Source: Fonticula-like sp. SCN 57-25
Lineage: Eukaryota
Assembly (NCBI GenBank): GCA_001724245.1
Contig: MEDX01000029.1
Span: forward strand, 1-52,843
Length of the DNA: 52,843 nucleotides
Direction of reading: 5' to 3'
Position numbers and translations under genes: made by a program
The notes under the pieces: model-generated
Seen by the model: the letters and a program-made list of their open reading frames with translations, nothing else
Databases searched by the model: none
What the model was told of the DNA's origin: nothing
Shown here: positions 11,525-51,100 of the stretch, piece after piece
Numbering within the stretch: the first letter of the stretch is position 1
How the letters are laid out: every line of letters starts with the position of its first letter

Positions 11525-12638
11525 TTACTGTACATGTGTTGGTGCCACGACGCAGTAGCGCGCCATAATGTCCTTGAGCCACTGAATCCACACCTCGGCC
11601 GACCTGCTCTTGTCGAACGACGACGTGTCAATAGGGATGACGCGGCTGGACGCAATTCCATCGTCAAATTCTGCCAGGGCAATGATGGGCAGCCCGTCTG
11701 GGAAAGCGATGGGCAGCCTGAGCGTCAGCAGGTAGCTCGCCGCCGTCGTCGCCCACAAAAGCGAGATCTTGGACGGCATCCCGACATCGACCTCGACAAT
11801 GTGGCGCTTAAACGTCGCCAAGACGGAAGCAATAAAGGCCGCGCGACGTTTCCGGTTGTCCTTTACGCGCTCGCGCGCCGTCTGGAACGCGGCATGCGAT
11901 TCGTTGATGAAGCTCGCGACGCCGACTTGGCTGCTGAACGGCGGAAAGACCGGCGTGCCGATCAGCTCCTCGGAAAGGCCGTCCATATCAATGCGCGCGT
12001 CGGAGCGCTGAAGGTGGGAAGCGGCGCCCACCACAAGCTCTGCCCCGATTTGACCAACTGTAGGCGCGCATGAGCATCAGACAGCAAACTAATAATTGAG
12101 GCGTACCGCGGACCGGCGCGCCAGTGTCATCCGCCACATGAGCAGCGACAATGATGCGCACAATGAAATCGGCGCCGGCGCGCGTCAAGGAATACTCGGG
12201 CGAGAGATCGCTCGACAGCGTTTCGAGCTCAAAGTTGAGCGGCGCGCACTCGAGCAGGCGGATGCAGCGAACCTGATGCTCCAGGTAGGCGCGGCGGACG
12301 TCGGCCAATAGGGCGCGCACAGCGGCGGGCGTCGTATCTGTCCAAGAGCTCCACGACGGTAGACTTGATAAAAGAGGGGAAAAGGGATACTCGGCAGAGG
12401 CCTCGTTCGCCTCGTTCACTATGAGATCCGGCGGCGTCCCGTCGTCATGCAAAATAAAAGTAACTAGACTTTATATTAGCAACACGCACACTCTCGATAG
12501 GGTTCACGTACCAAAGAGAGGGCCACCACTTGTCTGCAGCTCGGCCTCAAACGAAGCGGCCGAGAGAGCGCTCATCTCGCGCACAGCCGCCGGATTCCCC
12601 GGCTCGCCATCGCGCAGCGCCGCAATGACCCCTTCCAT
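11525..12638 (-). CDS. BABAM2: BRISC/BRCA1-A complex member 2 (BRE/BRCC45), 3 exons
   Basis: TPPDLIV, LPSWSSW, AYLEHQ..LNFELETL, RKRRAAFIASVLATFKRHIVEVD and LRLPIAFPDGLP match BRE motifs. Start codon uncertain. Confidence 0.8.
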
Positions 12639-19947: not shown

Positions 19948-22900
19948 ATGGCGCAGCGGCCACAGGAACTGCGGGACTATAGGGTAAGCCTGCGCCATAT
20001 GTGCTCTTTGAAAGTGAATAGAGTGTGCTAACAGTCGTTCTGCCTTGCTTTTTCTGCCGGTCGTTGTAGGTCTGGCAGTATGATGTGTTGGAGCAGAATG
20101 GCCTGCTGGGACTGGTGGTGGGCACCCCGCACCAGCCGGAGGATCCCTACGCGGCGCCCGAGGACAACCCTGACCCGGTGCGCGCTACTACCACCTTTCT
20201 TTGCGCCTTGCTCATATTTCGCTTTTGATCCTTGCAGCTTGCCCCCGACGAGATCATCATTCGCGTGCTCGGTGTGTCGGTGCCGTACAAGATCAAAGCC
20301 GACGAGCTGCCCGTTGTCGATCGCGGCTTCACGTACAGCGATCCCGTGACGTGGGCGGAAACTGCTCCGCGTGCGTGGAACGGCATTGTTCAGAGCGGCA
20401 TCATCCGCCGCGTGCGGATCATGCTTGATGTTACATTCTCCGAGCCACTTCTGTCGCACTTTGCCGTTGCTGACCGCAACGTGAGCCGCCTGAATGTGCT
20501 CACCGATGTCGACTCGCAGCACTTTTTGCCGGCCACGCCCATGATGCTTGAATCGCTCGTGACGTACCGCGGATGGGTAGGAAGCATCGAAGGGGTGCGC
20601 ATCCCGCATGCCAATCGCTCACTTTTGCTGACATGGTACAGATGGTGTACGAGCTCATCCTGCAGACATCGACGCACACCTTTTGCATCCCTGTGCAGGA
20701 AGTCGCGCACGTCACGAACGTCTTGTCCGCCTTTGCCGAGAGCTCGTCGCACTTTGTCGGCGCGACCGTCCTTGTCCCGCCGCGCGTGTGGCGCTCGGCG
20801 CGCGTCCTCACCGGCAGCCAGTCCACCGTCACCTACCCCGAGCACGCCGTCATCGCCGCGTTTGGCCTGCGCTTCCTCGAGATTCAGTGGATCACGCCCG
20901 ACGTGGAGCAGGAGCGGCCAATGCCGCCGCCGCGCATCAACGTCTCAAAGATGACCGAAGCGCAGACGCGCAGGCTCTTTGACTACCCGTCGCACATCTT
21001 TGAAAACGACGGGTTCAATATCGGAAGCCCGCTCATCGTGCGCCCCGACTCGCCCCACGCGGCGGTGGTAAAGGAGCACTTTGACCGTCTGGTACGCACT
21101 ATAATCAGTTTGCCTCTTGTTCTAACGCTACAAAAATAGCGCCGCCAATTCCCCGTCCCTCTCACGATGGGCCTCATTGTGACGCGCACGCGCAGCGTCG
21201 TCGATGTCCAATGGCAGGACGGCAGCATATCGCGCGACGTGAAAGCGACCGACCTCGTCTTCCGCAACAACATTGACGAGCACGAATTCTTTTCCGGCGA
21301 CTTTGTCGTTGAGAAAAAAGTGCAGTCGCTCGCCGACGGCGAATCTGCGGTCGACGACGTTGAGCGCGTCGGCGTCGTCCTTTCGATGAACGCCGCCGAG
21401 CGCACCTGCAAGGTCCGCTGGATGGACGCCTACGTCCGCGACAACGTCCAGGAAGAAGAAGTCCCCGTATTCAACCTGCAGCGTCACAGCCTCTGGGACT
21501 TCCAGATCGGCTCCGAAGTCGTGCTCCTTTCCAAGGCGGCGCACTCGACCGACGCCGCCGTCATCGCGCGCGCCGGCGCCATGGTCGACGACTTTGTCCG
21601 CGGCACCGAGCGCGAGGGCCGCGTCAAGCCGATCGACGACCAGGCGCGGCGGGCGCAGTACGCCGGCGTCGCACTCGGCGTCATGCCAGAGGGCCTCGTG
21701 GTCGTCTTGTGGGCAAACGCGTCTTTCAGCGCCGTCCCGCCGGACCACCTCTTGCTCGTCGAGGACGAGGGCGAGGAAGAGGCAGACCCTGATGCAGAGG
21801 ACGAGGAAGAGGAGAGCGACGAGTGGATTGTCGAAGATGACGTCGAGTACAGCACGAATGACAACCAGGAAGAGGGCGACGAGGGCGACTGGGAAACCGA
21901 CGAAGAAGAAGATGATGACGAGAATGTTGATGATGAAGATGAGCATGAAAGCAGCAGCGGCAACGCGAGCGACGTCGAGTGGTACACGGACGACGAGATT
22001 GACGACGCCGAGATCGAAGCCGACGCAATGGACGTCGACGAAATTGATGATGACGTCATTGACGTGAGCGAGGCGCTGACAGAGAGCGAGGCGATGGAGA
22101 TGGTGCTCAATGCGCTGTCGGACAGCAGCGTGGCGGCGCGCCAGCTCATTCTCGACACGATCGCGGCGCAGCAGGCGCAGACGTCGTCGTCAGAGGGCGA
22201 AGAAGACACTTTTCACGATGCGCGGCAGTCGCCAGAGCCAGAGGAAAGGCCGACGAGCGGGGCGACCGCCGTTGAAGCGAGCGCAGAGACGGCGCAGGGT
22301 GGAGCAGTGTTGTTTGAGATGCTCGAATCGGCGCCTGCCAATCACCACTTTATCAGTTCAGCTGTACGAAAAATCATTTTTACTGCTTTTTGCTCACTAT
22401 TGAATAGACGCAGCCGAGCAGACAGCTGATGCACCGCCTCGCACAAGAGCACAGCATGCTTGAATCGTCGCTTCCATGTGCGCTTTTCCATATTTTTCCT
22501 TTCATCTAACTTTTCCTTAGCCGGTATTCTTGTGCGCGTGTTTGAGGATCGCATGGACCTGATGCAGTGCATGATTTGCGGCCCCGCCGACACGCCCTAC
22601 GAGGACATTATGTTTCTGTTTGACCTTCACATGCCGCCGACGTACCCGCAGGTGCCGCCGGAAGTGTTTTTCTACTCGTGGACGGACTCGCTCGGGCGTC
22701 TCAACCCGAACCTCTACGAGGACGGCAAAGTGTGCCTCAGCATTTTGGGCACGTGGACGGGCAACGGCGTCGAGAATTGGAGCCCGGCATCGAATGTGCT
22801 TCGTGTACTTCTTTCTATCCAGGCAATGGTGCTCGTCCGCGAGCCCTACTACAACGAAGCAGGGTCCGTTTTTCATATGTTTTTTATATGTCGCTGACTA

Positions 22901-23298: not shown

Positions 23299-23464
23299 CG
23301 CACGCGGACGATTTTGCCGCACATTTCTCGATGGATAATTATCTCATTTCGCATATGTACTGTTTGGGTTTCTTTACGTATGAGTAAATATGAGGCATGT
23401 ACACTTGATTACCGACAATATCGCCCAACAAAACGCGTTCTGATATGATACAAACCAAATATTT

Positions 23465-24508
23465 CTACTCGTCGTCGTCGTCAGCGGCGCTCTCGGCGTC
23501 GCCACCGGCGCTGTTGGCTGCGCTCTTGCGGCGGCGACGGCGGCGGCGCTTCTTTTCCGGGGCATCAGACTGGCTCGTCTGCTCGGCCTCTGGCGCTGCC
23601 TACACACGCCGTGTTTAACACAATACTGTACCCACATTATTCGTACCCTCTTTTTTGTGGCCGCCTCGCTGCTCTCCGCCTCTGCATTGTCGCTCGTCTG
23701 CGGCTTTTCTTCTGCGCTCTTGACCGCCTTCTTTTCGGGCGTCTTGGGGGCCGCCTTTGCCGCGGTCGACTTCTTGACCGAGAGCGGGTTGGGCCCCTTG
23801 GCGGGCTGCTTCCTGTGCAGCACAAAGGCCGGCTTTCCCTCCTCCTTTACCTTTTTGGCCGCGGCGATTTCCGACGGCTTGGGCATCGCCTTGGCCGCCT
23901 CGAGCTCCTTGGCGCGCTGCGTCGACGCCGCGCTCGGCTCCTCGAGGATCACCGTGTTGTACTGGATGTAGCACAGCGGGACGGCGGGGATGCGACGCAG
24001 ATCATTGCGCAGCTTGGTGTCCTGCGTCGCGACGAGGTAAGAGTGAGGGTTAGTCTCGCCGACCATGGAGCGGAGGCAGTCGGCAGCGGGGATCGGCGTG
24101 TCGTGGCCGCAGCGGCGCGACTCGAAGCGTCGGGCGATCACGAGGGCGCCGCCAAAATCGGGGCCAAGCTTGCGAATCTCCTCGACAATGCAGCGCGTCA
24201 CCAGTAAGAATCGAGTCAAGGAAAAGAGTAAATTTACCACATAAACGACACGAATTGCGACATAATATACACGACAAAGGCACGATACATGACACACGAG
24301 CGCGTGCACACGCGGAGTATGAGCGGATATGTTCTTTGGTCTGCATGCCGAGCACCTTTGGTAGCTGCTCCTTGATATGAATCCTCGTCTGCAGCGCCAC
24401 CTGGCAGAATGTACCGTCCACGAGCACCTGTAGGGGCGCATGGAACTTGAAGCTGTGCCGGTAAAAGTCGAGGTGCCGCCGCACCGTCTTGAGCCGCTTC
24501 ACGCGCAT
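23465..24508 (-). CDS. UTP23: rRNA-processing PIN protein Utp23, 3 exons (first intron AT-AC)
   Basis: QVLVDGTF, VTRCIVEE, RRCGH, YLVATQD..LRRIPAVPL, KGPNPLSVKK. Confidence 0.95.
24204..24330 (-). other. U12-type (minor) AT-AC intron, 127 nt
   Basis: Donor ATATCC, branch TTTTCCTTGAC about 12 nt from the end, acceptor TTAC. Removal restores the frame (QTKE-L-VTRC). No AG dinucleotide in the interval. Confidence 0.88.
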
Positions 24509-24521
24509 CGTGTCACCGTAC

Positions 24522-24536
24522 TATCCACGTGGCCGT
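24522..24536. promoter_or_regulatory. E-box element TATCCACGTGGCCGT in the 32-bp UTP23/MRPS10 divergent spacer
   Basis: Identical 15-mer at 19898-19912 upstream of UBE2O; CACGTG also at 2637, 2668, 12658, 12726 and 52774. Confidence 0.6.
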
Positions 24537-24540
24537 ATCG

Positions 24541-25150
24541 ATGTCTGTCGTCGGGTGGCGCATGTTGGCCACGGGGGCCGCCGCGCCGATGCGGTTCGCC
24601 GCTGCGCGCGCGCTCGCGACGGCTGCCACCGGCGTGCCGGCGGCGGTCTCGCCGAATTCGCACCGCACAGAGAACCAGAAGCGCGTCCAGATTAGGCTCG
24701 AGGCTTTCGAGGTCGATATGCTCGACGAGTTTGTGAGATTTACACAGGACACGGCATGGAACCTCCATCTGATCCCGGGGTACGCCTTTTAATTATTTTC
24801 CTCTTTTTATTAAATTGAATGCGCTCAATAGCGGTCGCGTGGCGCTCCCGACGCACATCCGGCGGTGGACCGTCAACCGCTCGCCGCACATTGACAAGAA
24901 GAGTCGCGAGCAGTTTGAGATGCGGACCCACAAGAGGTAAGAATCGCCCATTTTCTTCTTTGTTTACTAAAGCGCTCTTATTAGGCTCGTACAAGTGCAC
25001 AATGTCCCGCCGATCGTGCTCGACTTTTACGTCAAGTACCTCGCGCACCATCTGCCGGCCGGTCTCGGCATGAAGGTCCGCAAGTTTGACTACCAGCGCG
25101 TGCCGACTCGCACGGCAGAGCTGCTTGCCCGCGCGCGTGCCTCCAACTAA
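24541..25150 (+). CDS. MRPS10: Mitochondrial ribosomal protein uS10m, 3 exons
   Basis: [41 protein letters not shown]; presequence-like N-terminus. Confidence 0.93.
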
Positions 25151-29220: not shown

Positions 29221-31414
29221 CTATGAGGATGCCTCGAGCAGGGCGACCGTCTTTGACGCGAGCCGCGAGATTTCCGCGTCGGGGTGCGTCAATACTTGCC
29301 GCAACGCGGTCGCCACCTCTGTCGTCGCATTCACGCGGTCGCGCGCCGCCTGCATCTCGGCTACGAAAAGTGTCAGTTTGTGCGTAATTATATGAAAAAA
29401 GGGCGCACGGTTACGACAGATTTCGTAGATTGTCCATGTGGCAATGTGCGGCAAGGCGGGGTTGCTCGACTGGAGGAACTGCAGGAGGTAAACAGCGGCG
29501 CTGTCCCAGCATTCCATAAACTTTTGCGCTCCCACAGCTATGAAAAACACAAAATTGTAAGCAAAAAGCAGCCAAGTGGGATAACATACGCGACCCGACG
29601 AGGTTGCCCAGCGCGGCCGCCGCGTGCCCCTGCACGTCGGGGCTGTCGGACGACGCGAGCGCGACGATCTGCTCGACGACGCCCATCTCGGCGAGGCGTG
29701 TACACAGGGACGGCGACAGCGCAAAAACAGTGATGGCCGCGGCCACTTCGCTGAGCAGCTGCTTGGGCGCGTCGGGAAGAGAGAGCAGCGCCATGACGTC
29801 CTCGACGCCGTCGTACTGCAGAATATTGTCGCGGTTCGCGTCGGTGGCGGAAATGTTGCGCAACGTCGAGACGCAGTGGCAGAAAATGTCGTAAATTGTC
29901 CTATTCAAGTTCGCCGCTAAAAATAATATGGTACATTTAGCAAACTGAACTGCAAAACAACCGAGAAAAAAACCACAAAAAAGCGTACCTTGCCCGTGCT
30001 TTGAAAACTTGCGGATGACGTCGAGCAGCAGCTGTACGCAGTGGTTCTCCACGAGGTGCGCCTCATTGAGCGGGTGGATGCTGATATTGCGAAGCACGGC
30101 CACGGCCGCGACCAGCACGGCGGGCTGGTCCATCGAAAAGCGAATCAGCTGAAGCAGCGGCTGAACACCATTGCGCTTCACAATATGCAATTGATAATCC
30201 TCTGAGCAAAGATGTATGAGTATATGTGAAAGAAACACAAATAGACGCACCGTCAGAGGCAAGGTTCAATAGAGCGAGACACGCCTGAATCTGCAGCTGA
30301 CTGGACGTTGACGACAAGAGGCTGATAAGACCCGACAGCAGCTCGTCCACATGGGCAAGCAAGAGTCGCCGGTGCTCGCCTGCGCGCATCGTGAGCAAAA
30401 AAACAAAAAAATGTGCAAAAACGGACCGTCAACTGCAATATTACTGAGCGCGGCGGCACAAAAGTACTGCACGTCGGTCTCGGGCGACCTCAAGAGGCGC
30501 ACAAAAACGGCGAGGCAGCCGGCGCGCACGAGCGCGGGCCGGTTCTTGTCGGCGTGCGTCAGGTTGAGCAGCGCCCCCGACGCGTTCCTGACCGTCCGCG
30601 AGTCCTCCGAGTAGCACAGCTGCACGAGCGGCACAAGCGCGCCGGAGGAAACTATCCGGACCTTGTTCATGTCCGCCGTCGAGAGATCCGTGAAGCAGCC
30701 GCAGACGGTCCGCTGTACTTCGATGCTCGGCGACGAAAGTAGCTTGACGAGCGGATCAAGGCCGCCAAGCTCAACAATGAGCAGCTTGTTCAGGTCTGAG
30801 GAAGAAGAAAAAAAAATTGGTGAGGAAAGGGCGATGGAAAGGAGGAAAGATGCGTACCATTCACTGTCAAGTTGCTCAGGGCAAAGGATGCGGCGCGCTG
30901 AATCTGGACGTCGGACGACTGAAGAAGGCGCAGAATGGGATATATCAATTCACGTGTGGCGGGCGCATTATCTATGTCGCTGTCAGAAGCGAGAAATGCA
31001 GAAGGAAGCAGCATACCGGGCTTGATCACCTCTGAGAATGTCAGCGCGGCAGATCGCTGAAGCTCGACATTTGACGAAAAGCTCAGCGTTGTGAGCGCGC
31101 CCAGGGCCTCGCTCCAGTAAGCAGAGTCATTTGCGTGGTCTATTTCAGCAGTATTGAGTAAAATATTTGAAAAGCCAAGCAGATGCACGCACTGCCGAGG
31201 TACTGAAGCAAATTGGACACGGCATCGCGCTCTGCATCACCGAGCAGCGGCTCCCGCAGGTCCACCGCCTTGTTGGCTCCTAAACAAATACATAAAACAA
31301 AAGAAAGAAAGAAAATAAACAAATAAAAAGAGCATATTCCTCGTGAATTAGCTTTCACGATCAAGATGAGCCGCATGCGCCAGGGCACGTACGCGTGCTG
31401 CAGCAGTTGCCCAT
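29221..31414 (-). CDS. VAC8: Vacuolar armadillo-repeat protein Vac8-like, about 10 exons
   Basis: N-terminal MGNCCST acylation motif; EPLLGDAERDAVSNLLQYL; NVELQRSAALTFSE; RNASGALLNLTH; DVQYFCAAALSNIAVD; LRNISIHPLNE; DVQGHAAAALGNL. Confidence 0.92.
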
Positions 31415-33940: not shown

Positions 33941-36900
33941 ATGACCAAGTCGCCTAGCGACGCGGAAAAGGTCGCGGAAGGCCGACGACTCGTACGTGTC
34001 CTTGTACGGCGTCGCCGTTCACTAACGCGTGCAATGCCTTATCTGTTTCCAGTTTTTACAAAAGAGGCTTAACCTTGCCAATAAGGCAAAGGGATCGGCG
34101 CCAGCAGTTCAAACGTACGCGCCATTTTCACCCATCCAACATTGGCCGATGCATTTGTCTCTTCTAACTTGTCGCGTTGCGCGCCCGCCTATCTTCTTCT
34201 TCATTTAGAACCCCGGCTGCAGACAATCATGTGGTATTAGAATTCGGCACCCCGACGCCAACGAAACAGGCATCCGTCGCCTCGGCCGTTGGCGATCTTT
34301 TGCAGCCCCTGCGGTCCCTCGCGGGCAATGGTGCGGGCCCGAACTCTGGCGCTGCACCCGACGCCGAGTTGGGCGATGCTTACGGTTTTCCCGCAATTGC
34401 GGGAGGCCGTAGCGCTGTGCAGTATGTGCCGCCGCCGGCCCATCCCGCTGCCCATCCCGCCGCCTCGGTTCCGACGTGGACGCCTCCGGTTCTGCCCGAA
34501 GCTGTCGCTGCGCCCGCACCGGTCTCTCACGGTGTCGCTGAAGCGTCGCAGCCATTTGTTCCGCTTACAATGCTTCACGGTTCCATTATCGAGCCCGAGC
34601 CTTTCGTCGATCACGTCGCCCCCAAGCTCAGCAGCTCCTTTTTGCCTCCGATTGAGCAGGGCGATGCCCTTGCTTCGCCCGTGGCGGCACCCGACGCCAC
34701 GCCCGCGTGGGCGTCGAGCGCGTCCATGGAACAGGCCCGTTTTCAGCCGACTGCCGCTGCTTCGCCCGAGCTCTGGTCGTCCATTTCGATCGATGGCGGC
34801 CACGCGCGGCCAGCCTCGGTCGATGCGCCCGTCGACGGCGATGCGCTGAGCATGTCGCCGACGCCTTTGGACGCGGACGATTTCCTGGCGACGTTGCCTG
34901 AGCCGTCCAGCCCGCCTGCGCTTGATGCGTTTGAGGAGAGCGAGCATGAGCCGTCCGTTCACGAGACGTCGCTCGCCGCCCCTGTGCCGCTTTTCTTCGC
35001 ACCGAGCGACCCCGAGGAGCAGAATGCCGCCATTTCGGCGTCCTTCCTCGCTTCCCCTGCGGCGTCGCACCAAGCGTCCATCGCTGCCGCCGACTCTGCC
35101 TCTCCCAACAAGTCGCTTCTCTTGTCGTCTGCCTATGCTGCCGATGCCGCCGAAGCCGACGACATTACCTTTGAGGAGCTCGACTCGGCACCTGCTCTCC
35201 CTGCTGCGCCCGAGATGACGCAGCAGCCTAGTCCCGCGCGCACCTTCCCTGGCGTTGCTGAGGGTGCTTCATTGACGGCGTCTACCGCCAGCCTCGTGCC
35301 GACACCAGAGGCGGATGAGCCGCGTGGCCGTTTCGAGGACGCAGAGCTGGTCGAGGCTCTTGGTGGCGTTTCGCCCGCGAGACTCCCTGCTGCTGCTGCT
35401 AGCGCGGCGACTCCCTCAAAGACTGCGTCTCCCGCAGCGTCGTTTGCGCCGTCGACGAGTTCCGCTGCCCCGCTGGCGGCCTCGTCAGTCTCGGCTCCGA
35501 CGTATGAGGCGCCGAAGCAGGCGTCCTTTGTGCAGTCGGCGGCTTCGTCGATCAAGTCGACTGGCGCCGCGGCTTCCCCGGCTGCTTCCCACGTGTTTGC
35601 ATCGCCTGCGCAGCCGTCGTTTTCGCAGACCTCCAACTTTGCCTCGCCCTTTGCGCATTCCGCCGGGTCGGTGGCGCAGTCTGCTACAACCTCTTATGCG
35701 CCGTCGCCCGCTCGCGATGAGGACGCCTCTCTCACGGAGGAGATTCAGGACGCACTGAACCGTTCGCAGGTGAGCTTTGCGCGCATGTCGTCCCTTTCGC
35801 AGTCGCTGCGCGCCATGCAGCCGTCGTTCGAGGCCTCTTTCCACGGCGCGGGCCATGATGAATCCGTGCTTGGTTCTCTGCCAGACTCTCTGTCCTCGTC
35901 GGTGGCGTCGTTCACCCCTGCCGCCGCGCCTGCTCAGCCGCGCGCCGCCGAGGCGCAACCCGCCCGCGTCAACGCCGGCATGACGTCTCACCTTCCTCTT
36001 CTTGCCCATGTCATTGAGCAATTCGAGGCCGAGATTGCCGTCACGCGCGAGGTCGGAGCCACCTTGCAGCACGTTGTTGGCCGCATGCACACGCTCATGG
36101 AAGACAAGCGCTCCCTGAACGGCAAGCTGCGCGCCATGAAGGAGCAGGTGAACAAGATGGACAATGCGCTCAGTCAGCGCCAGGGCGAGAACGAGATTTT
36201 GGAAAGGCGGCTTCGCGAGGCGCGCACTCAGATCGATGTTTGGGAGCGCCGCAGCATCGATGCTGCCAAGAACGGCGACGAGTTGGGCGCCAAGCTGCGC
36301 ATTTTCGAGCGCGAGAATGAGTTGCTCAAGACGCGCATCGACCAGGTAAGCACAGAGGCCGAGATCTTGAAGCAGGCCCAGAAGGAAAAGGAGATGCAGG
36401 AAATGTCGGCGGAGGAGCAGCTCGACGACCTTCGCCAGCAGCTTGAAAAGTGCCAGGCGGCCCTTGACCAGGAGCACGCCGAGCACACCATGGAAAAGGA
36501 GCGCCTCGCGACCCGCCTCGCCGAGAGCGCGTCGTTTGTCGAGACGCAGGCCGCCATCACGGACGAGTGGAAGTCGCGCGCCGAGGCCGCCGAGCGCGAA
36601 TGCCTCGCTTTCCGCTCAAAGCCGCAGGAGTTTGCCGAGCAGATTGCGCTTTTGGAGGAGCAGCTCAAGGTTCTTCGCGGCGAAAAGACCGAGCTTGCCG
36701 ACCAGCTGCACCGCTACAAGGTCGCGTCTCGCATGGAGGTCAGCCCCGAGCGCAAGCAGCTCGGCGTGTCGGCGCACCGCCTTGCGGAGCGCCCGCTCGC
36801 CGACTCACTGCGGAGCTCTGTCGCAGAGTCAGAGGTTAGCCTCAGCGACCTGTCGGGATCTTTCCAGCACACTGAGGAAGATGGCACGGCGTCCGACAAG

Positions 36901-39900
36901 CACAGACTGCCGCGGTCCGCCAAGATTATCCAGCGCCTCAGCGAGCAGGTCGCCGAGGCCCGGCAGGATCTCCGTCGCGTGTCGGGCGAGCTGGTCGCGT
37001 CGCAGGAGACGGTCTCAAAGCTGCTTGAGGAACAAAAGGAGCTCCGCTCGAGTCGCGTTCAGATGCAGTCCGAAGAGGTGGCGCGGCTCACGGCCGAGCT
37101 CGACGAGCAGCAGGTTTCCTTCCGCAGGCTCGGGCAGGAAAAGGTTGCGCTCGAGGAGCGCATCCGCGACTACGAGAGCGAGGTCAACTCGCTGCGCACG
37201 AGCCGCGCTCAGCTGAGCTCGCAGCTGCGCTCGGCCAAGGAGAGCGCCGATCACTGGCGGCTCGAGATCGACTCGCAGCGCGCGGCTTACGATGCGCTCC
37301 GCGTCATGCATGAGAACGCCACGGAGCAGCACATCCAGCTTCGCGGCGAGTTCCGCAAGGCGCTCGAGGAGCGCGACCAGCTGCAGGCCGAGATCGCCGA
37401 TCTGCGCGCGGACGGCAAGCCGGAAGAAGGCAGCGCCATGCGCAGCAGCGGCCGCACCAAGACCGTTGTGCCGCTCGGCGAGATCCGTACTGTGTACGTC
37501 AAGGACGAAAAGGCGATTGCCGAGGCGCAGGAGGCGCTTGCGGCGGCCCGCGAGGCCGAAGCCGAGGCCGAGTCCAAGGTCAAGAGCCTTGCCATGGCCA
37601 TCGACATTATGGGCAAGGACCTGTCGAGCCTTCGCACTGAGCTGAACCTGTCCAAGCAGGAGCTCGAGCGCGTCAAGAGCGACCACACTCTTACGGTACG
37701 TCGCAATTTTTGTAGTAGTTTTTGTTGCTTACGCTTTTTTTGCAGCAAATGACGCTTGAAAGCACTTCGGCAGAGCTCAGTTTGGTGAGGCAATCGCTTG
37801 CTGATTCGACCGCCACGAACGCCGACCTTGTGAGCGACAATCAGCGTCTGCGCACGGAGCTTGAGGAGCACCGCCTCGCACTTCCTCTGAGCGGCATCGC
37901 CCAGCTCGAGTCCATGCTCAGCAACCTGCGCCAGGAGAACCGCACCAACCAAAAGGAGCGCCAGATTGCGATGCAGCTTGTTGAGGAGCAAAAGGCGCTC
38001 GACGAGAGCGTGCTGAGGACCGAGCGCGATATGCTCGTGGACCAGGTGGCGCGCCTTTCAAGCGTGAACTCGGACCTGCGCCGCTCCCAGCGCGAGTTTG
38101 CGACGCAAGTCGAGCGCTCCATGCCCGACCCGTCGCTCCTGCGCTCGCAGTTTGACACGCTCGAGCGCACCGCGGCCGTCGTTGCTGCCGAGCGCGATTT
38201 GTTAAAGTCAAAGCTCGCCGAGTCGCAGCAGGAGGTGAACAGCCTTCGGTCAAGCTTGCAGCCGCGCGTGGGCGACGTCGACGAAGAGTTGCCCGAGGAC
38301 GCGGGCGACGCGGGCTTTGACCTTGACCGGTATGTTGAGCCGATCAGCGACGACGGCGAACTGCACGACCTTGACGACGCGAACGACTCGCGCGACCGCG
38401 CCACGAGCTTTGTGGTGCACCAGGATGTTGCCTCCCCGTCGCTGCTCGCCGTGCAGCGCATTCGCGCCGCGCAGGCGATGGAATCGATTGTCGAGACCGA
38501 CTTTGAATCCTTAGATGACATTGAAGTTGGCGAGGATTCGCTGCACATTGCGCCGGCCGCTGCTGCGCGCGGAACTGGCGCTGCGCCCGCCGCGCCGCCG
38601 ACGCGCGACGCCCTCACGCGCGCCATCCTTGAGGACGCGGCCGACCGCCACGAGAATGTCGACTCGCTTCACGCGTGGATGGAGGACGTCCCGCCGACGC
38701 CCGTGCGCGAGGACGCGCTCGCCGCCTTTGCCAAGGCCCGCAGCGCACCCGCCACGATAGAGGAAGAAGAAGAGGAAGACGGCGGCGAATTCGAGTTTTC
38801 CGATATTGAAATTGCCGAGAACCATTTGCAACAGGCGAGCGACGACGACGACGGCTTTGCCGACATTGAAGACTTGGCCGTGGACGTTGCCGCCGAATCA
38901 TCTCGTCTTCACGGGAGCGGCATGTCCATCGGCGGCGTTGGAAGCAGCGCGCCCATCAGTGCCCCGGTCAGCGCGCCTGTCACAGCCCCCGCTCGCGCGA
39001 CGGCCAACCGCGCTGGAACGATCACGCTCGAGGACTGGCAGCGTCAGCAGACGGCGACGTCGATGGCTGCGCTGGCGGCGTCGGTGCCGGTCGTCCAGCG
39101 ACTCAGCTCAAAGCCGCAGGCCGCCAAGCCGCAGGCCCCCGCTGCTGCCGCCGCGCCCGGCCTTCAGCGCTGGATGGAGACGCAGGCCGATGCCGACGAC
39201 GGTTTCGACTGGGACGACGACAGCGAGGAGCAGCAGCCGCAGGCCCGCCTGCCCGCGCGCGCTTCTGCGCTGCCGGCGGCCGACGATGACGACGATATGG
39301 ACGCTGACTTTGAAGGGCTGGACGACCGCGGGCCGCTTGCCATGAGGCCTCCGCCTTCGCACCTCGAGCAGCTGCAGCGCGACCACGTTGTGCTTCAAAT
39401 GTCGCATATGCCGAGGGCAGCGGGTGGCGCTAACGTCGAGCGCACGTCGCCGTCGTCGCTCAACTCGGACGGCGAGCCGCGCGGCGACGGCCTTTCAATC
39501 AGCGAGCTCGGCGTGTCGGCCGCCACATTTGTGTCGCGCGACGCGCCCTTGTCGCCCGTCCGGCGGCCACGCGAGCTGACGTCGTCCGCTCCCGACCCGC
39601 CGACGCCCACGACGCGGCACTCGTCGGCTTCGTCGTCGACGACATCGGCCAACTCGTCTCGTCTCGGCGTCTTTGGCGGCGTGATGGCTTCTGCGTCTTC
39701 GGCGCGCGTCATGATGCCTTCGCAGCTTTTGTCCTTCACGTCGGGCCGCAGCACCGTGTCTGCACGGGGCGAGAACGGAATTACAGCGCACCCGCGGTTG
39801 CTCGCGTCGGCGCAGGCCGCGCACGGCAGCTCGAGGGGCATCATCGACATTGCCGACGGGTCGCTTCAGGGTAGCAATTACCTCCTGACGCCCAGGGCAG

Positions 39901-40157
39901 ACATGGGTCTCATCCTCACCAACCAGGCAGAGGTCGCCGAGACGCAGCTCAACGACGGGCTCAATACATATCTGTACGACCTCGTGCAGACGAGCCTTAC
40001 GAGGTCGCAGGAGAGGCCGCTGCCCCCGCCGACATTCCCGCAGCAGTCGCAGCCGGCGTCGCCGACGCCAGCGGGCACGCGGACAGACGCGCTGGTAGAG
40101 TCGCCACTGCACACGAGCGACGAGGGAAGGCGGTCAGCAAGGAGACTCTTTGACTAA
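33941..40157 (+). CDS. Very large (about 2000 aa) disordered plus coiled-coil protein, about 4 exons
   Basis: Long ORFs 34177-37752 and 37722-40157 joined by a GTACGT..CAG intron; A/S/P-rich N-terminal half, heptad E/Q/L/R middle, acidic tail; small 5' exons from ATG 33941. Confidence 0.75.
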
Positions 40158-45106: not shown

Positions 45107-48100
45107 ATGTAGGGGCGGCGGAACTCCCTGGCCGTCCTGCTCATCGCTGCCGTCCTCGTCGTGCAGGGTGCGTTCGATCGTTTCATCGTGCGATTGCTGA
45201 TCGTGTCGATAGTCGCACAAAGCGTAGACGTGTTTGCGTTTGATTCCACCTACACAAACTCGTCCACTCCTTATGAGAACTATCAAGCGGTCTGTTTCTA
45301 CTCTGATGGGGGGCTGGCAACATGCGAGAACATCTTTGCGTTCACCGACGGCAGCTCGACCGAACCGACGAGCGTCGCCTACTTCAATTTCGACCTTTCT
45401 TCTCGAGCTGTACGTTTTTGGTCATGCCATTCAACTGATACTGACATATTGTCTCGTAGCCCGACCCTTCGCGCTTCTGCGCAACAGGCATTCCGCGGCT
45501 ATACATCAATTTTGGTCGCGACATGAACCCCTCGGGTTTGACAAGCAGTGTCATCGTCGACGTACCAAGGATCCCAGTGTACGCCGGTTTCTTTTGAGGT
45601 CGATATATTGACTTGCGTTGCAGCAACTTTGAGATGGTGACTTGGGATAGTCAGCCTTCACTCGATGATTCCACCGCGCGCGTCGTCGGCGGATACAGCA
45701 TGAATGAGTACGCTTTGCCGGCTCGTGTATCCTTGGCTCACCGCTCCTGTAGCGACGCGATTTTTACATACTACGTAAGTTTGACGGCCGACTTTCTCAA
45801 CACCGCCGTCCGCCAAACGAGCTATGCTGTGCGTTGCGCTCTTCAAGCCGCGCTGCCCTCTTACATTACGTTAGGTCACGGTTCGGAATTTCTACTCGCA
45901 CGCAGCTCGTGTGGGTTGGGAAACCCACGTGCTCGACAAAGGATTAATGAGTCCTTTTTTGTCGTTCAACTACCTTACTTGCGATGCGAACGCGGCGTGT
46001 ACCAATGGCGCATGCGTCTGCAACATGTTCTATTCCGGCTCTGGAACGTCGTGTACCTGTACGCGCCCCCCTCAAATCAAATTGTTGCTAATGTTGCTTT
46101 GCTAGATTCCGCGTGTGAAGGCACATCCATGAGCAACGCTCGCTTCCCCCTCTCGCAGTCTGGCACACTGGTAACCGGCGAATGCGAGGGTGGCTACAGA
46201 GGATCGCCGAAAGCCGTTTGCAACAACGGAGTCTGGGGTGCCGTCTCTGACCCTTGCACAAGTGCGCACACCACGTGACGGCGCGTTTGCTTACATATAT
46301 TCTAGTTTCGGCATGCGCTGCGGACAATTCAGGGTCGGTGGGCAACGCTGTTTACCCGCTCACAAACAGGGACCAGGTCGCCACTGGAACATGCCTTTTC
46401 GGCTATGGAGGTTCGGCTTCTCGCCAATGCGATAGCGATGGCGTGTGGGCGACTTCAGCCTTGACGTCGTGCACTCGCCTGCTTTGCGAGGCGGCTACAA
46501 TGGGCAACGCCTACTTTCCGGTAACAGATAGTTTGACGAGCGGATACGGTACTTGCTTTAACGGCTACTCGGGATCTCCTTCAAGCAGCTGCTCTGCGTC
46601 GGGGACATGGGGCGAAGTTGCCTCGCCTTGCGTTCGTACGTGCCGCTCTTTTTATTAATTGACATCTAATGTTGTTATTTATAGGAAACACGTGTCTTTA
46701 TTTTGCTGATTACGACAACAATGTCGCCTGGCCCCAGACCTCCTCGCTCACTACTGCCGTTGGCACGTGTTCCTCTGGCTTTGAAGGTGCACCTGAGCGC
46801 GAATGCCTGGCATCCGGTGAGTGGTCGTCGCAGATGACTGGTAGGTGTGTTCCTCTCGCGTGCCCCGAGGAATCCTTGTTCCAGAATGCCGCATGGCCAT
46901 CGACGAATGGAGGCTCTTACGGTAATGGCGTTTGTATCGCTGGGTACTTTGGGTCACCGCAGAGACAGTGTCGACTTGACGGCACGTGGTCGTCGACTGT
47001 TTTGCCAATTTGCAATCGTCACTATTGCGCCGCCGTAACGTTTGGAAACGCAGCATGGCCGTCCAACACGCCTTCCATGACAACGGCCACCGGCATGTGC
47101 GTTGCCGGCTATACCGGCACTCCTTCGCGCGCCTGCCAAGCTGACGGCCAATGGGCATCGACGGTGACCAATCCATGTGTGCAAATGTTCTGCCCCTCTT
47201 TCCAAGGAAACAATGCCAATTGGCCGCACGCGCCCGCCTTTTCCCAGTCTGTGCCTGGCGAGTGCGTTTCCGGCTACACCGGCAGCCCCACGCGCGACTG
47301 CAGCGCGTACGGCGATTGGCTCGCGGTGTCAAATCCGTGCACGATTATCCGCTGCGCAGCCGTGACGGAAGGCTTTGCCACGTGGTCGGCCGCCGACGCA
47401 TTTGCCACGATTGCGGGCTCGTGCACGACGGGGTACTATGGCACGCCGCGCCGTACCTGCGGCCCCGACGGGGCTTTTGGCGAGATTGTCAACCCGTGCC
47501 AGCGCATCATGTGCATGGCAGGAGTGGCGGGCGACGCGTCGTGGCCAGCGACTCCTTCTGACACGACCGCGACGGGTGTTTGTGACCCTGGATGGACCGG
47601 ATCGCCGACGCGTGTTTGCGGCGCCACTGGTAACTGGGGAACCGTGACGAATGCGTGCACTCGCATGACGTGCGCCGCCGCCAATGACGCGGTCGCTCAG
47701 GCGCAGTTCCCTGCTGCCAACGCGGGCGACCAATCGGTGGCCGGCACGTGCTACGAAGGCACGTCGGGGTCGCCCTCACGTGACTGCCACCTGGACGGGA
47801 CGTGGTCCGAGACAAACAACCCATGCAGCACCAACCCGTGCCCCGCGCTACTCGACAGCGAGCACGCCAACTGGCCGAGCCCCGATGAGCCCAATACTCT
47901 CGTGACTGGTACCTGCGTCGCTGGCTACGACACATCTCTGCCGCCGCCAAAGCGCATGTGCAATTCAAACGGCCAGTGGTCATCCTCGATCACCAACCCG
48001 TGCCAGCCCATCTACTGCACGGCAAGCACGCCCGGCTACGCTGCCTTTAACGCCCAGTGGCCCGCGCAAGTCCAGGCCGGCACTTCTGCTTCCGGCACCT

Positions 48101-51100
48101 GTGTTGCGGGCTACTCTGGAACGACCTCTCGCGCGTGCTCGCTGGCCGGCGTATGGGGCACGCCGTCGCCGCTCTGCGATGCCATCAAGTGCGCCGCCAT
48201 CAGCAACGACGGCGCGCATAGCTCGTGGCCGCAGACGCAGGCAGGTCAAAGCGCATCGGGTTCGTGTCTTACGGGCTATGAAGGCTCGCCTACTCGCCTC
48301 TGCAGCATGACCGGCCAATGGGAGACCGTCTCGTCGCCCTGTGTTCAGAAGAGGTGCCCTGCCGAGACGGTTTCCAACAGCAACTGGAACGCCACACTCG
48401 GCGGCCTCAGTGCGACTGGCCAGTGCGTCATTGGCTCGACTGGTACTGTGACGCGCGCCTGCTCGGTGGACGGTGTGTGGGGCCCGATCTCTGGCGCGTG
48501 CGTCGATATGGTGTGCCCCGCCGAGACTGTCGACAATGTCGTGTGGCCAGAGGCGCAAAAGGGGACCACCGCCACCGGCTCGTGTGTGATGGGCTACGGC
48601 GGCGAGAGTGCGCCTACGCGCGCGTGCCTCTCGAGCGGCGTTTGGGGCTCTGTAAGCGGCGAGTGCGCGCGCATCCGCTGCCCTGGTGGCACGTACGAGA
48701 ATGCCGTATGGCCCGAGGAGAACTCGATGACAAATGGCGTGCGCGGCACGTGTGTCGCCGGCTGGCAAGGCGCGCCGCTGCGCAACTGCTCTGCTACGGG
48801 CGTCTACTCTGCCGTGGCGAACCCTTGCGTTCAGACGACGTGCGCGGCGCTCGATACAGACGCCGGCGCGTGGCCGCTGACGTTTGCCGGCACCGTGACT
48901 GTTCAAGGCGAGTGCCCCGCCGGCTCGGATGGCGCCCCTGTGCGCGACTGCTTGATCAATGGCACATGGACGGCGGCGACGGGCACTTGCATCGCGCGGT
49001 CGTGCCAGGCCCTTGTTGATGGCCACGTGAGCTGGCCGCTGACGGCTGCTGGCAGCTCTGCGGCTGGCACGTGCGATTCCGGCTACTCTGGCAGCCCCTC
49101 GCGGCGGTGCTCGTCGCTCGGCGAGTGGGAATCGATCGCCAACCCGTGCGTACAGAACGTGTGCCCCGCCGTGGTTGACGGACTCGTGGAATGGCCGCTG
49201 ACGCCCGCCTTGTCTGCGCCTGTCAACGGCACATGCCCTACCGGCTATGCTGGCTCGCCGCAGCGGTCGTGCGATGCGAGCGGCAACTGGGGCGACATTG
49301 TCGGCCCATGTGAGGCGGTGCTGTGCCCAGCTGCTTTATATGATAACGCCGACTGGGATGCGACGGGTGCCGGCCAGGAAACCGTTGGGCAGTGCATCAC
49401 CGGGTACATTGGCACGCCGCGCCGCGTGTGCCTTGCATCTGGCGCATGGAACGCAACGATCAGCTCGCCGTGCACAATCAAGTACGACGACTGTCCGAGC
49501 GAGACGGTCGGTATGACATTTTTCCCGTCGGCTGCGCCCGGCACGAGTGTCGAAGGCAACTGCGCCACTGGCTATCAACCGTCGCCCGACGGCCCGCCGA
49601 CACGTCAGTGCTACGCTAATGGTACTTGGGAGGAGCTCTTTTCTCGCCCGTGTACATTTGGTACGCGCCTTGAAATGACGAACGACAATACTAACTTTTC
49701 CTGTCCAGTACCTGTGTCGAGCGGGATTATCAGCGATTTGCGCTGGACGAGCAAGACATCCAACTCGGTGACACTGGCGTGGTCGGCATCGAATACGACC
49801 CCCAACACCACTTTCCGCGTGGAAGTGGCGTCGCTGACTGGCGCATTTGTAGTGGCCAACTTTGGAAGTGCGTTTTGATACTTTGCATTGCATAGTTACT
49901 GATGTATCTTTAAGGCGCCATCGACCTTGTTAATCGGGAGGTTGTCGTTCTGGGCTTGACGCCAAACACGGCTTTCCAGTTCCGGGTGTCGCATAGCGAG
50001 ATGGGCAGCTACTCTGAGCATGACGCCTTGGTCATCAGCACAACTACATATATCTCACGTGCGTCATCTGCTTATCTTAATTATTGCCTGACACTTTTTT
50101 GCAGCTGTTGGCGGCCTATGGATGGAGGCAGCAACGCCGAATTCGCTGCGACTTGTTTGGACGGCGTCGCCCGAAAGCGATTTTTACCAGGTTTGGTATC
50201 GGTCACTTGGGTCATCGCGCGCCGTTTCGGACGGCTTTACTTTCTTTACACGCCTTTCAAGCGGTGCGCGTGAATTAATACATAAAATGAAATTGACGGC
50301 TGATATTGATGGGCATAGATGCGCAATCGGTTACTGTGACCGGGCTCACAGGCGGTCGTCGGTACGAGGTGCTTGTGCTTGCAGGCCTGGGCACGGAAGC
50401 CGAGCAGGTTGGCGCGCGCATCACAGTTGCGACAGCCGCAACAGCAACAAACGACGATTCTTGTACGTTATTTACACCATTACCAGGCGTATCTAACACG
50501 TTTTTGGTTGTTTAGCGGAAAGCGAAAGCGACAGCAGCAATGCTCCTCAAAATATTGGTCTCTTTATTGGCATTGCAGTTGGCTGCCTTGCTTTCATCGT
50601 GATCATCATATTGACCGTGCTCTATCTGCGTGCTCGTAAGCGCGCGTCCGACAAGCCTGATAAGGACGCTATTGGTAGCATGATGGCGCTGGTACGCTCA
50701 ATAATTGCTGCGCTGCTTTTATATCTAACCAGTGTCTTTGCCACCACAGAACAATTTGAGGTCGTACGATTCGTCGCCAAGCTTTGACGGAAACGGCAGA
50801 GGGGACGACATTGAGACAGCTTCACCGCCCGCACCTCATCATGGCTCCGCACTGCACGGTGACGCTGACATGCCGCAAGATGCGCCGCCCGAATATTCCA
50901 CAGTATTTGTCGCGCCAGCATCAAGCTCTGACCAGACCCCGCCGTTGAACAAGAGAATGTCATTTGATAGCAAGTCGCCGTTTGATAACAAGTCACATAT
51001 CGATAGCAAGTCACCAATCGAGTTCACGTCGACAAGTGCTTCGGCGTCGGCGTCGGCCAATCAGGCGTCAAGGTCAACGACGCTTCCTCGGCAAGCCGTT

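Follow-up and report, generated by a model that had tools for sequence, protein, structure and literature searches.

A candidate U12-type AT-AC intron with a mildly unusual donor in the UTP23 gene of an apparently unsampled eukaryote

The UTP23 locus and its surroundings

The window, by which we mean the whole 52,843-nt stretch of DNA that was analysed, carries on its minus strand UTP23, a ribosome-assembly gene (small-subunit processome, Fcf1 family), which was modelled as three exons (Table 1). The translation of exon 1 begins MRVKRLK and ends ...GMQTKE, followed by the single base C. These 59 residues were compared by BLASTP and aligned without gaps to the N-termini of P0007 (E = 1e-16, 47% identity) and P0009 (E = 6e-18, 54%), and the exon 1 piece alone returned no Pfam family at E <= 0.01. 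The VTRCIVEE frame of exon 2 runs from 24201 downwards, and this exon matched the Pfam families Fcf1 (PF04900, 1.2e-28) and UTP23_sensor (PF24779, 6.9e-05, 23.2 bits against a cutoff of 15). A preliminary description of this DNA had reported that the UTP23 frame breaks between ...GMQTKE and VTRCIVEE, and the minus-strand sequence and translations confirmed the break. At the junction of exons 1 and 2 the split codon C|TG encodes Leu, and excision of intron 2 leads into a C-terminal tail that is basic and ends at a stop codon. The three exons (24508-24331, 24203-23647 and 23599-23465), joined in a script, gave a product of 289 aa. This product was identified as UTP23 by its Fcf1 domain, its sensor motif and a conserved MR.KR N-terminus that aligned with homologues. 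The best named UTP23 matches reached 41% (Coemansia, Rhizoctonia, Blastocladiella).

Table 1. Coordinates of the UTP23 gene, its candidate AT-AC intron and the neighbouring genes used for comparison.
Feature	Position	Strand	Description
UTP23 exon 1	24508-24331	-	ATG at 24508; 59 codons plus the first base (C) of a Leu codon
Candidate U12-type AT-AC intron	24330-24204	-	127 nt, phase 1, GC 0.44
5' splice-site motif ATATCCGCTC	24321-24330	-	+1 to +6 as the U12 consensus; GC at +7/+8 against consensus TT
Branch-site motif TTTTCCTTGAC	24225-24215	-	the A at 24216, which lies 12 nt from the final base of the intron (24204), is the predicted branch point
3' terminal AC dinucleotide	24204-24205	-	read from the sequence
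UTP23 exon 2	24203-23647	-	starts TG, then VTRCIVEE...; Fcf1/PIN domain and UTP23 sensor motif
UTP23 intron 2	23600-23646	-	U2-type GT-AG, 47 nt (GTACGA...TAG), phase 0
UTP23 exon 3	23465-23599	-	stop TAG at 23467-23465; from the scripted splice and translation
Ribosomal protein S10 gene	24589-25150	+	three exons; Pfam Ribosomal_S10 on exon 2, 2e-13
S10 intron	24780-24831	+	52 nt, GTACGC
S10 intron	24937-24984	+	48 nt, GTAAGA
Vac8-like armadillo-repeat gene	29400-31286	-	at least four short GT-AG introns
Vac8-like introns	31192-31140, 31016-30972, 30857-30796, 29589-29538	-	GT-AG

The sole predicted protein for UTP23 in the large protein collection was P0003 (275 aa; 23374-24201, minus strand). 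Its start is the GTG of VTRC, exon 1 was missed, and the GT-AG intron 2 was read through out of frame. Because P0003 reads through this plain GT-AG intron into nonsense it is an artefact of the caller, namely a prokaryote-style gene call on a eukaryotic contig.

UTP23 and the gene for ribosomal protein S10 are divergent and lie head to head with 80 bp between their start codons. The S10 product has an N-terminal extension and is therefore probably mitochondrial. We collected seven homology-supported U2-type introns from the window, one being UTP23 intron 2, two lying in the adjacent S10 gene and four in the Vac8-like gene. Six of these were supported by a continuous ORF together with homology and the remaining one, in the Vac8-like gene, by tblastn segment (HSP) ends alone. 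All seven were GT-AG introns of 45-62 nt with G at +5, and their donors were GTACGA, GTACGC (twice), GTAAGA, GTGCGT, GTATGC and GTATGT. The preliminary description had called the genome streamlined, and this was supported at the local scale only, by the short U2-type introns and the 80 bp between divergent start codons. One in-frame stop was left in the Vac8-like model, which points to a further intron, and the ORF boundary at 30265-30269 suggests where this stop is located. A U2 donor profile built from composition-filtered GT...AG candidates was dropped as uninformative noise, as was a regular-expression intron set that yielded 64 matches against a chance expectation of 36.5.

Named matches of UTP23, the Vac8-like protein and endonuclease V were scattered over fungi, holozoans, amoebozoans, plants and a haptophyte. 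The best named matches of the Vac8-like protein were at 60% (fungi and invertebrates), and those of endonuclease V were at about 50% (45-52%) to Capsaspora, a haptophyte, dictyostelids, Balamuthia, animals and plants. In a tree of endonuclease V with 35 rows the sequence from the window sat on a long branch and in no supported clade. No relative above about 40-60% protein identity was present in the collections searched, and the source organism is apparently an unsampled eukaryote.

Other content of the window was also recorded. A large cysteine-rich multi-exon gene at 45598-49875 (plus strand) carried repeated HRM (hormone receptor), Sushi and Ephrin-CRD matches, and a 1071-aa ORF within it matched Pfam HRM (3.6e-40), Sushi (2.7e-15) and Ephrin-CRD (1.9e-23). 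By its domain matches, this gene would be an animal-like extracellular repertoire in a microbial eukaryote. Two long open frames of 1194 and 812 aa lay at 34168-40154 (plus strand), where the GC content of the window is highest (0.63-0.67), and neither matched a Pfam family at E <= 1e-5. A BRE/BABAM2 match (2.6e-06) was found at 11528-12076 (minus strand), and UBE2O SH3-B/SH3-C and UQ_con domain matches were found at 21140-22894 (plus strand). To our knowledge the BRE/BABAM2 and UBE2O families are not typical of dikaryan fungi, and these matches may aid placement of the organism.

Sequence and boundaries of the 127-nt interval

The interval between the first two UTP23 exons starts ATATCCGCT and ends TTAC. 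Its donor reads ATATCC from +1 to +6, GC at +7 and +8, and T at +9. Close to the 3' end, the TTCCTTGAC core of the branch motif is exact and extends to TTTTCCTTGAC, and the motif TCCTTGAC is present in the candidate intron. The interval contains 16 GT dinucleotides and no AG, the nearest AGs being at 24335/24334 upstream and at 24182/24181 downstream. From composition 4.1 AGs were expected, and the complete lack of AG had P = 0.0067 in 20,000 shuffles. AG avoidance in an AT-AC intron would block cryptic GT-AG splicing, although this is only a guess. The start, the branch motif 12 nt from the end, the TTAC end and the missing AG were all as the preliminary description had given them. The GC content of the interval was below that of the flanking exons (0.58 and 0.65), and the predicted RNA fold of the 127-nt intron was no more stable than that of shuffled sequences (z = -0.41). 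The interval is T-rich (40%) and A-poor (16%), and the exon 1 and exon 2 frames are both open across it (stop-to-stop ORFs 24050..24520 and 23374..24498).

Excising exactly 24330-24204 produced an ungapped junction alignment with 17 of the 19 UTP23 homologues, and the other two (P0006 and P0010) lack the junction region. This gap-free junction supported the claim that the interval is an intron. To place these ends among the alternatives, all donors from 24420 to 24291 were combined with all acceptors from 24262 to 24121 that keep the frame open. The enumeration returned 6083 frame-preserving, stop-free donor/acceptor pairs, 38 of which had GT-AG, GC-AG or AT-AC ends. The 28 GT-AG or GC-AG pairs are restricted to the AG at 24181 or to AGs further downstream, and as a result every one of them deletes the conserved VTRCIVE, in which T and C are conserved in the homologue alignment. 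The proposal that GT-AG splicing could not restore the T-R-C block was thereby upheld for 28 of 28 pairs. The remaining 10 pairs were AT-AC, and only 24330/24204 kept the conserved blocks on either side at the length seen in homologues. A cut shifted by 1 nt (CA...TA) would give an identical mRNA but matches no known splice-site type. The AT-AC termini sit at boundaries that the gap-free alignment and the enumeration of alternatives fix.

The same interval was compared with contigs of four DNA runs, and those from runs of three other studies (X4, X5 and X6) covered it whole or in part. The X4 contig (record 12) spanned 23940-24581 with 10 differences in 642 nt, one of them in the intron, at 24213. 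The X5 contig spanned 24131-24328 with no intron change, and the X6 contig spanned 24257-24407 with one listed intron change, at 24293. The donor and branch site were unaltered in the X4, X5 and X6 contigs and the DNA showed no joint at the interval. The finding of the interval unjoined in contigs of three other studies indicates that it is real DNA. Over the intron these strains share at least about 98% identity, and for this reason the unchanged motifs are uninformative on constraint. A more distant relative was seen in X4 (record 10), about 9% different over 23571-23802, with most of its differences and two indels concentrated in the U2-type intron 2. The contigs of this relative (records 10, 11 and 13) stop short of the AT-AC intron. 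A metagenome scan returned one 1572-nt contig of the same organism (L001) that holds the UTP23 3' end only, and a scan of genome contigs for further DNA from this organism or from relatives found none.

Assignment of the interval to a splicing class

The frequency of U12 motifs in the window was evaluated against chance. RTATCCKY matched 6 times against 6.94 expected, and TTCCTTRAC with at most one mismatch matched 18 times against 13.6 expected, with two exact matches when both strands were counted, one of them the UTP23 branch site. U12 motifs on their own were not enriched in the window. A relaxed composite (RTATCC, 20-300 nt, TCCTTRAY, 7-13 nt, then AC or AG) occurred once in the real window and was present at least once in 30 of 300 Markov-1 simulations, with a mean of 0.11 per 105.7 kb over both strands. 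The composite motif alone would not be convincing. It is the base-exact coincidence of this composite with the sole donor/acceptor pair compatible with homology that makes the U12 case and takes it beyond chance.

A relaxed scan of the 52.8-kb window for further U12-type introns returned 32 rows and no second plausible candidate. Four of the rows fell at the UTP23 locus (127 or 134 nt), and the 28 elsewhere were rejected as introns, being 353-1173 nt long and spanning coding ORFs. Two single motifs were also rejected, GTATCCTT at 45727 (plus strand) and TTCCTTGAC at 12184 (minus strand), as each lay in sequence that looked coding and neither had a partner motif close enough to be workable. Components of the minor spliceosome, which the preliminary description had taken to be functional in this genome, were looked for in the same DNA. 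Rfam returned no snRNA gene at gathering scores in the 52.8-kb window and, at E <= 5, one irrelevant weak match only (RMST_1, E = 1.2), and no minor-specific protein family was found among the 50 window ORFs scanned.

The U12-type hexamer, the branch site, the branch distance and the AT-AC termini named in the preliminary description were all found. The predicted branch A lies 12 nt from the 3' site, which is within the spacing of about 10-15 nt expected of a TCCTTRAC branch site, as in introns of the U12 type. The candidate has C at +5, is 127 nt long and is free of AG, as compared to G at +5 and 45-62 nt for the local U2-type introns, and it fits the organism's own U2-type signals poorly. 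We consider it very probable that 24330-24204 is a U12-type (minor) AT-AC spliceosomal intron in the first third of UTP23. That this candidate intron is spliced, and by which machinery, we infer from the DNA. The DNA is a metagenome contig, and of the 18 sequencing runs listed for it none is recorded as RNA. In the splicing pathway that we propose, the U11/U12 di-snRNP would recognise the ATATCC donor and the long TTTTCCTTGAC branch site jointly, and the branch A at 24216 would attack the donor. The 3' site would then be selected for lying 12 nt from the branch A, and exons 1 and 2 would be joined at 24331|24203 with C|TG as the Leu codon.

The donor departs from RTATCCTT at +7 and +8, with GC for TT, as had been pointed out in the preliminary description. 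RTATCCTT is the '5' rule' that Bartschat and Samuelsson used for effective minor 5' sites, with /RTATCCTTT as the consensus, in the part of their article drawn on here (PMC2846911). Measured against this rule the UTP23 donor matches from +1 to +6 and fails at +7/+8. One portion of Sheth et al. 2006 (PMC1557818) reports for five species that U12 5' sites start to lose information content at +6, and an excerpt of PMC11347168 gives the stretch that pairs with U11 and U6atac as +4 to +9, which includes +7 and +8. Most simply, G at +7 and C at +8 are a deviation that is tolerated where constraint on the donor is weak, and the unusually long match at the branch site may offset it. Cooperative U11/U12 recognition could, by our own reasoning, compensate for a weaker donor. 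A donor with G at +7 and C at +8 is not evidence of altered snRNAs or of an altered spliceosome. No minor intron in UTP23 turned up in a narrow literature search, and a search for ATATCCG or GTATCCG donors in connection with U12 returned primer noise only. UTP23 and the donor strings were absent from one supplementary file of PMC11347168, which is confined to human introns and lists DONSON as minor.

Three other explanations of the interval were weighed. It could be left unspliced, the locus being a pseudogene or having another gene organisation, or translation could start inside exon 2 as P0003 assumes. P0003 does start at the GTG of VTRC, and the frames of exons 1 and 2 are both open through the interval. 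However, exon 1 codes for the conserved UTP23 N-terminus from its first Met, neither exon is broken, and a single exact excision links the two in frame into a product as long as the homologues. As 127 is not divisible by 3, reading through the interval would shift the frame, and P0003 also runs through intron 2 into nonsense. We regard an unspliced interval as highly unlikely. It is extremely unlikely, in our judgement, that the minor snRNAs were lost and that the major spliceosome removes the interval as a U2-type AT-AC intron ('type II'), or that an unconventional route does so. A section of PMC1557818 counts 15 U2-dependent AT-AC introns in human and mentions the hypothesis that some filamentous fungi have them too, and a passage of PMC11347168 relates reports of some lineages with minor-looking introns in which no minor snRNAs were detectable. 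The C at +5 of the UTP23 donor argues against type II, because such introns keep to the U2 5' consensus except at +1 (the same section of PMC1557818) and all 7 local U2-type introns carry G at that position. Under this explanation an exact U12 branch motif at the U12-typical distance of 12 nt would be a coincidence.

A further explanation, which follows the co-evolved pairing suggested in the preliminary description, is a shifted minor system, in which the U11 5' end and U6atac would pair with G at +7 and C at +8 and ATATCCGC would be near the local consensus. The donor deviates at two adjacent pairing positions, and the organism has no close sequenced relative (UTP23 at 41%, endonuclease V at 45-52%). 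There is a precedent in Physarum, where part of the report available as bioRxiv 10.1101/2020.10.12.336362 describes a U12 branch-binding region with two changes that complement TTTGA. The argument for a shift is built on a single intron, from which a tolerated outlier and a shifted consensus are inseparable, and the classical TTCCTTGAC branch site speaks for no shift on the U12 side. The decay of information from +6, again from the portion of PMC1557818 cited above, means that an outlier at +7/+8 needs no special explanation. Such a shift seems to us improbable. The reading of the UTP23 intron as an ordinary member of the known U12 class whose donor is mildly unusual is well supported.

Comparison with known introns and implications

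The candidate was set beside the splicing systems that it most resembles. With the canonical U12 AT-AC introns of animals, plants, non-dikaryan fungi, amoebozoans and oomycetes the UTP23 intron shares its termini, ATATCC and TTCCTTGAC at 12 nt. It also shares with them a non-zero phase, a place in an old conserved housekeeping gene and a length greater than that of the local U2-type introns, as set out in a part of PMC10639083. It differs from them in that they have TT at +7/+8, whereas the UTP23 candidate has GC and is known from DNA alone. With the type II introns described in a section of Sheth et al. 2006 (PMC1557818) the shared feature is the AT-AC terminal dinucleotides. Beyond +1 those introns follow the U2 5' consensus, and they lack a U12 branch motif, in contrast to the C at +5 and the perfect U12 branch motif of the UTP23 intron. 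Physarum polycephalum is the precedent for a lineage-specific shift of motif and snRNA together; there, by part of the bioRxiv report (10.1101/2020.10.12.336362), the branch site (TTTGA) and U12 are altered over about 20,000 introns, whereas here the branch site is classical and a single donor is involved. There is a slim chance that U11 and U6atac have shifted to accept G at +7 and C at +8 in this apparently unsampled eukaryote lineage, which would be the 5'-site counterpart of the co-variation of U12 and branch site in Physarum.

It is not unusual for a compact genome to retain minor introns. In the survey reported in a part of PMC10639083 minor introns were present in 64% of 1844 genera, including non-dikaryan fungi, amoebozoans, oomycetes and Blastocystis. 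Blastocystis sp. ST1 resembles the organism studied here in being gene-dense, in having very short introns and in keeping AT-AC minor introns. Its 253 minor introns average about 42 bp and are as short as its major ones, whereas the UTP23 candidate is about 2 to 2.8 times the length of the local U2-type introns. The same part of that survey gives minor introns longer than very short major ones as a known pattern where minor introns are few.

A minor intron in UTP23 is in itself expected biology. The wrong P0003 model indicates that eukaryotic metagenome contigs need splice-aware gene calling that allows AT-AC introns. If the UTP23 intron is spliced as predicted, one more lineage, known from metagenomes only, would retain the minor spliceosome. 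It would also provide a natural AT-AC donor that has two non-consensus snRNA-pairing bases beside a very strong branch site, and this would be a small data point on the limits of relaxed U11/U12 recognition.
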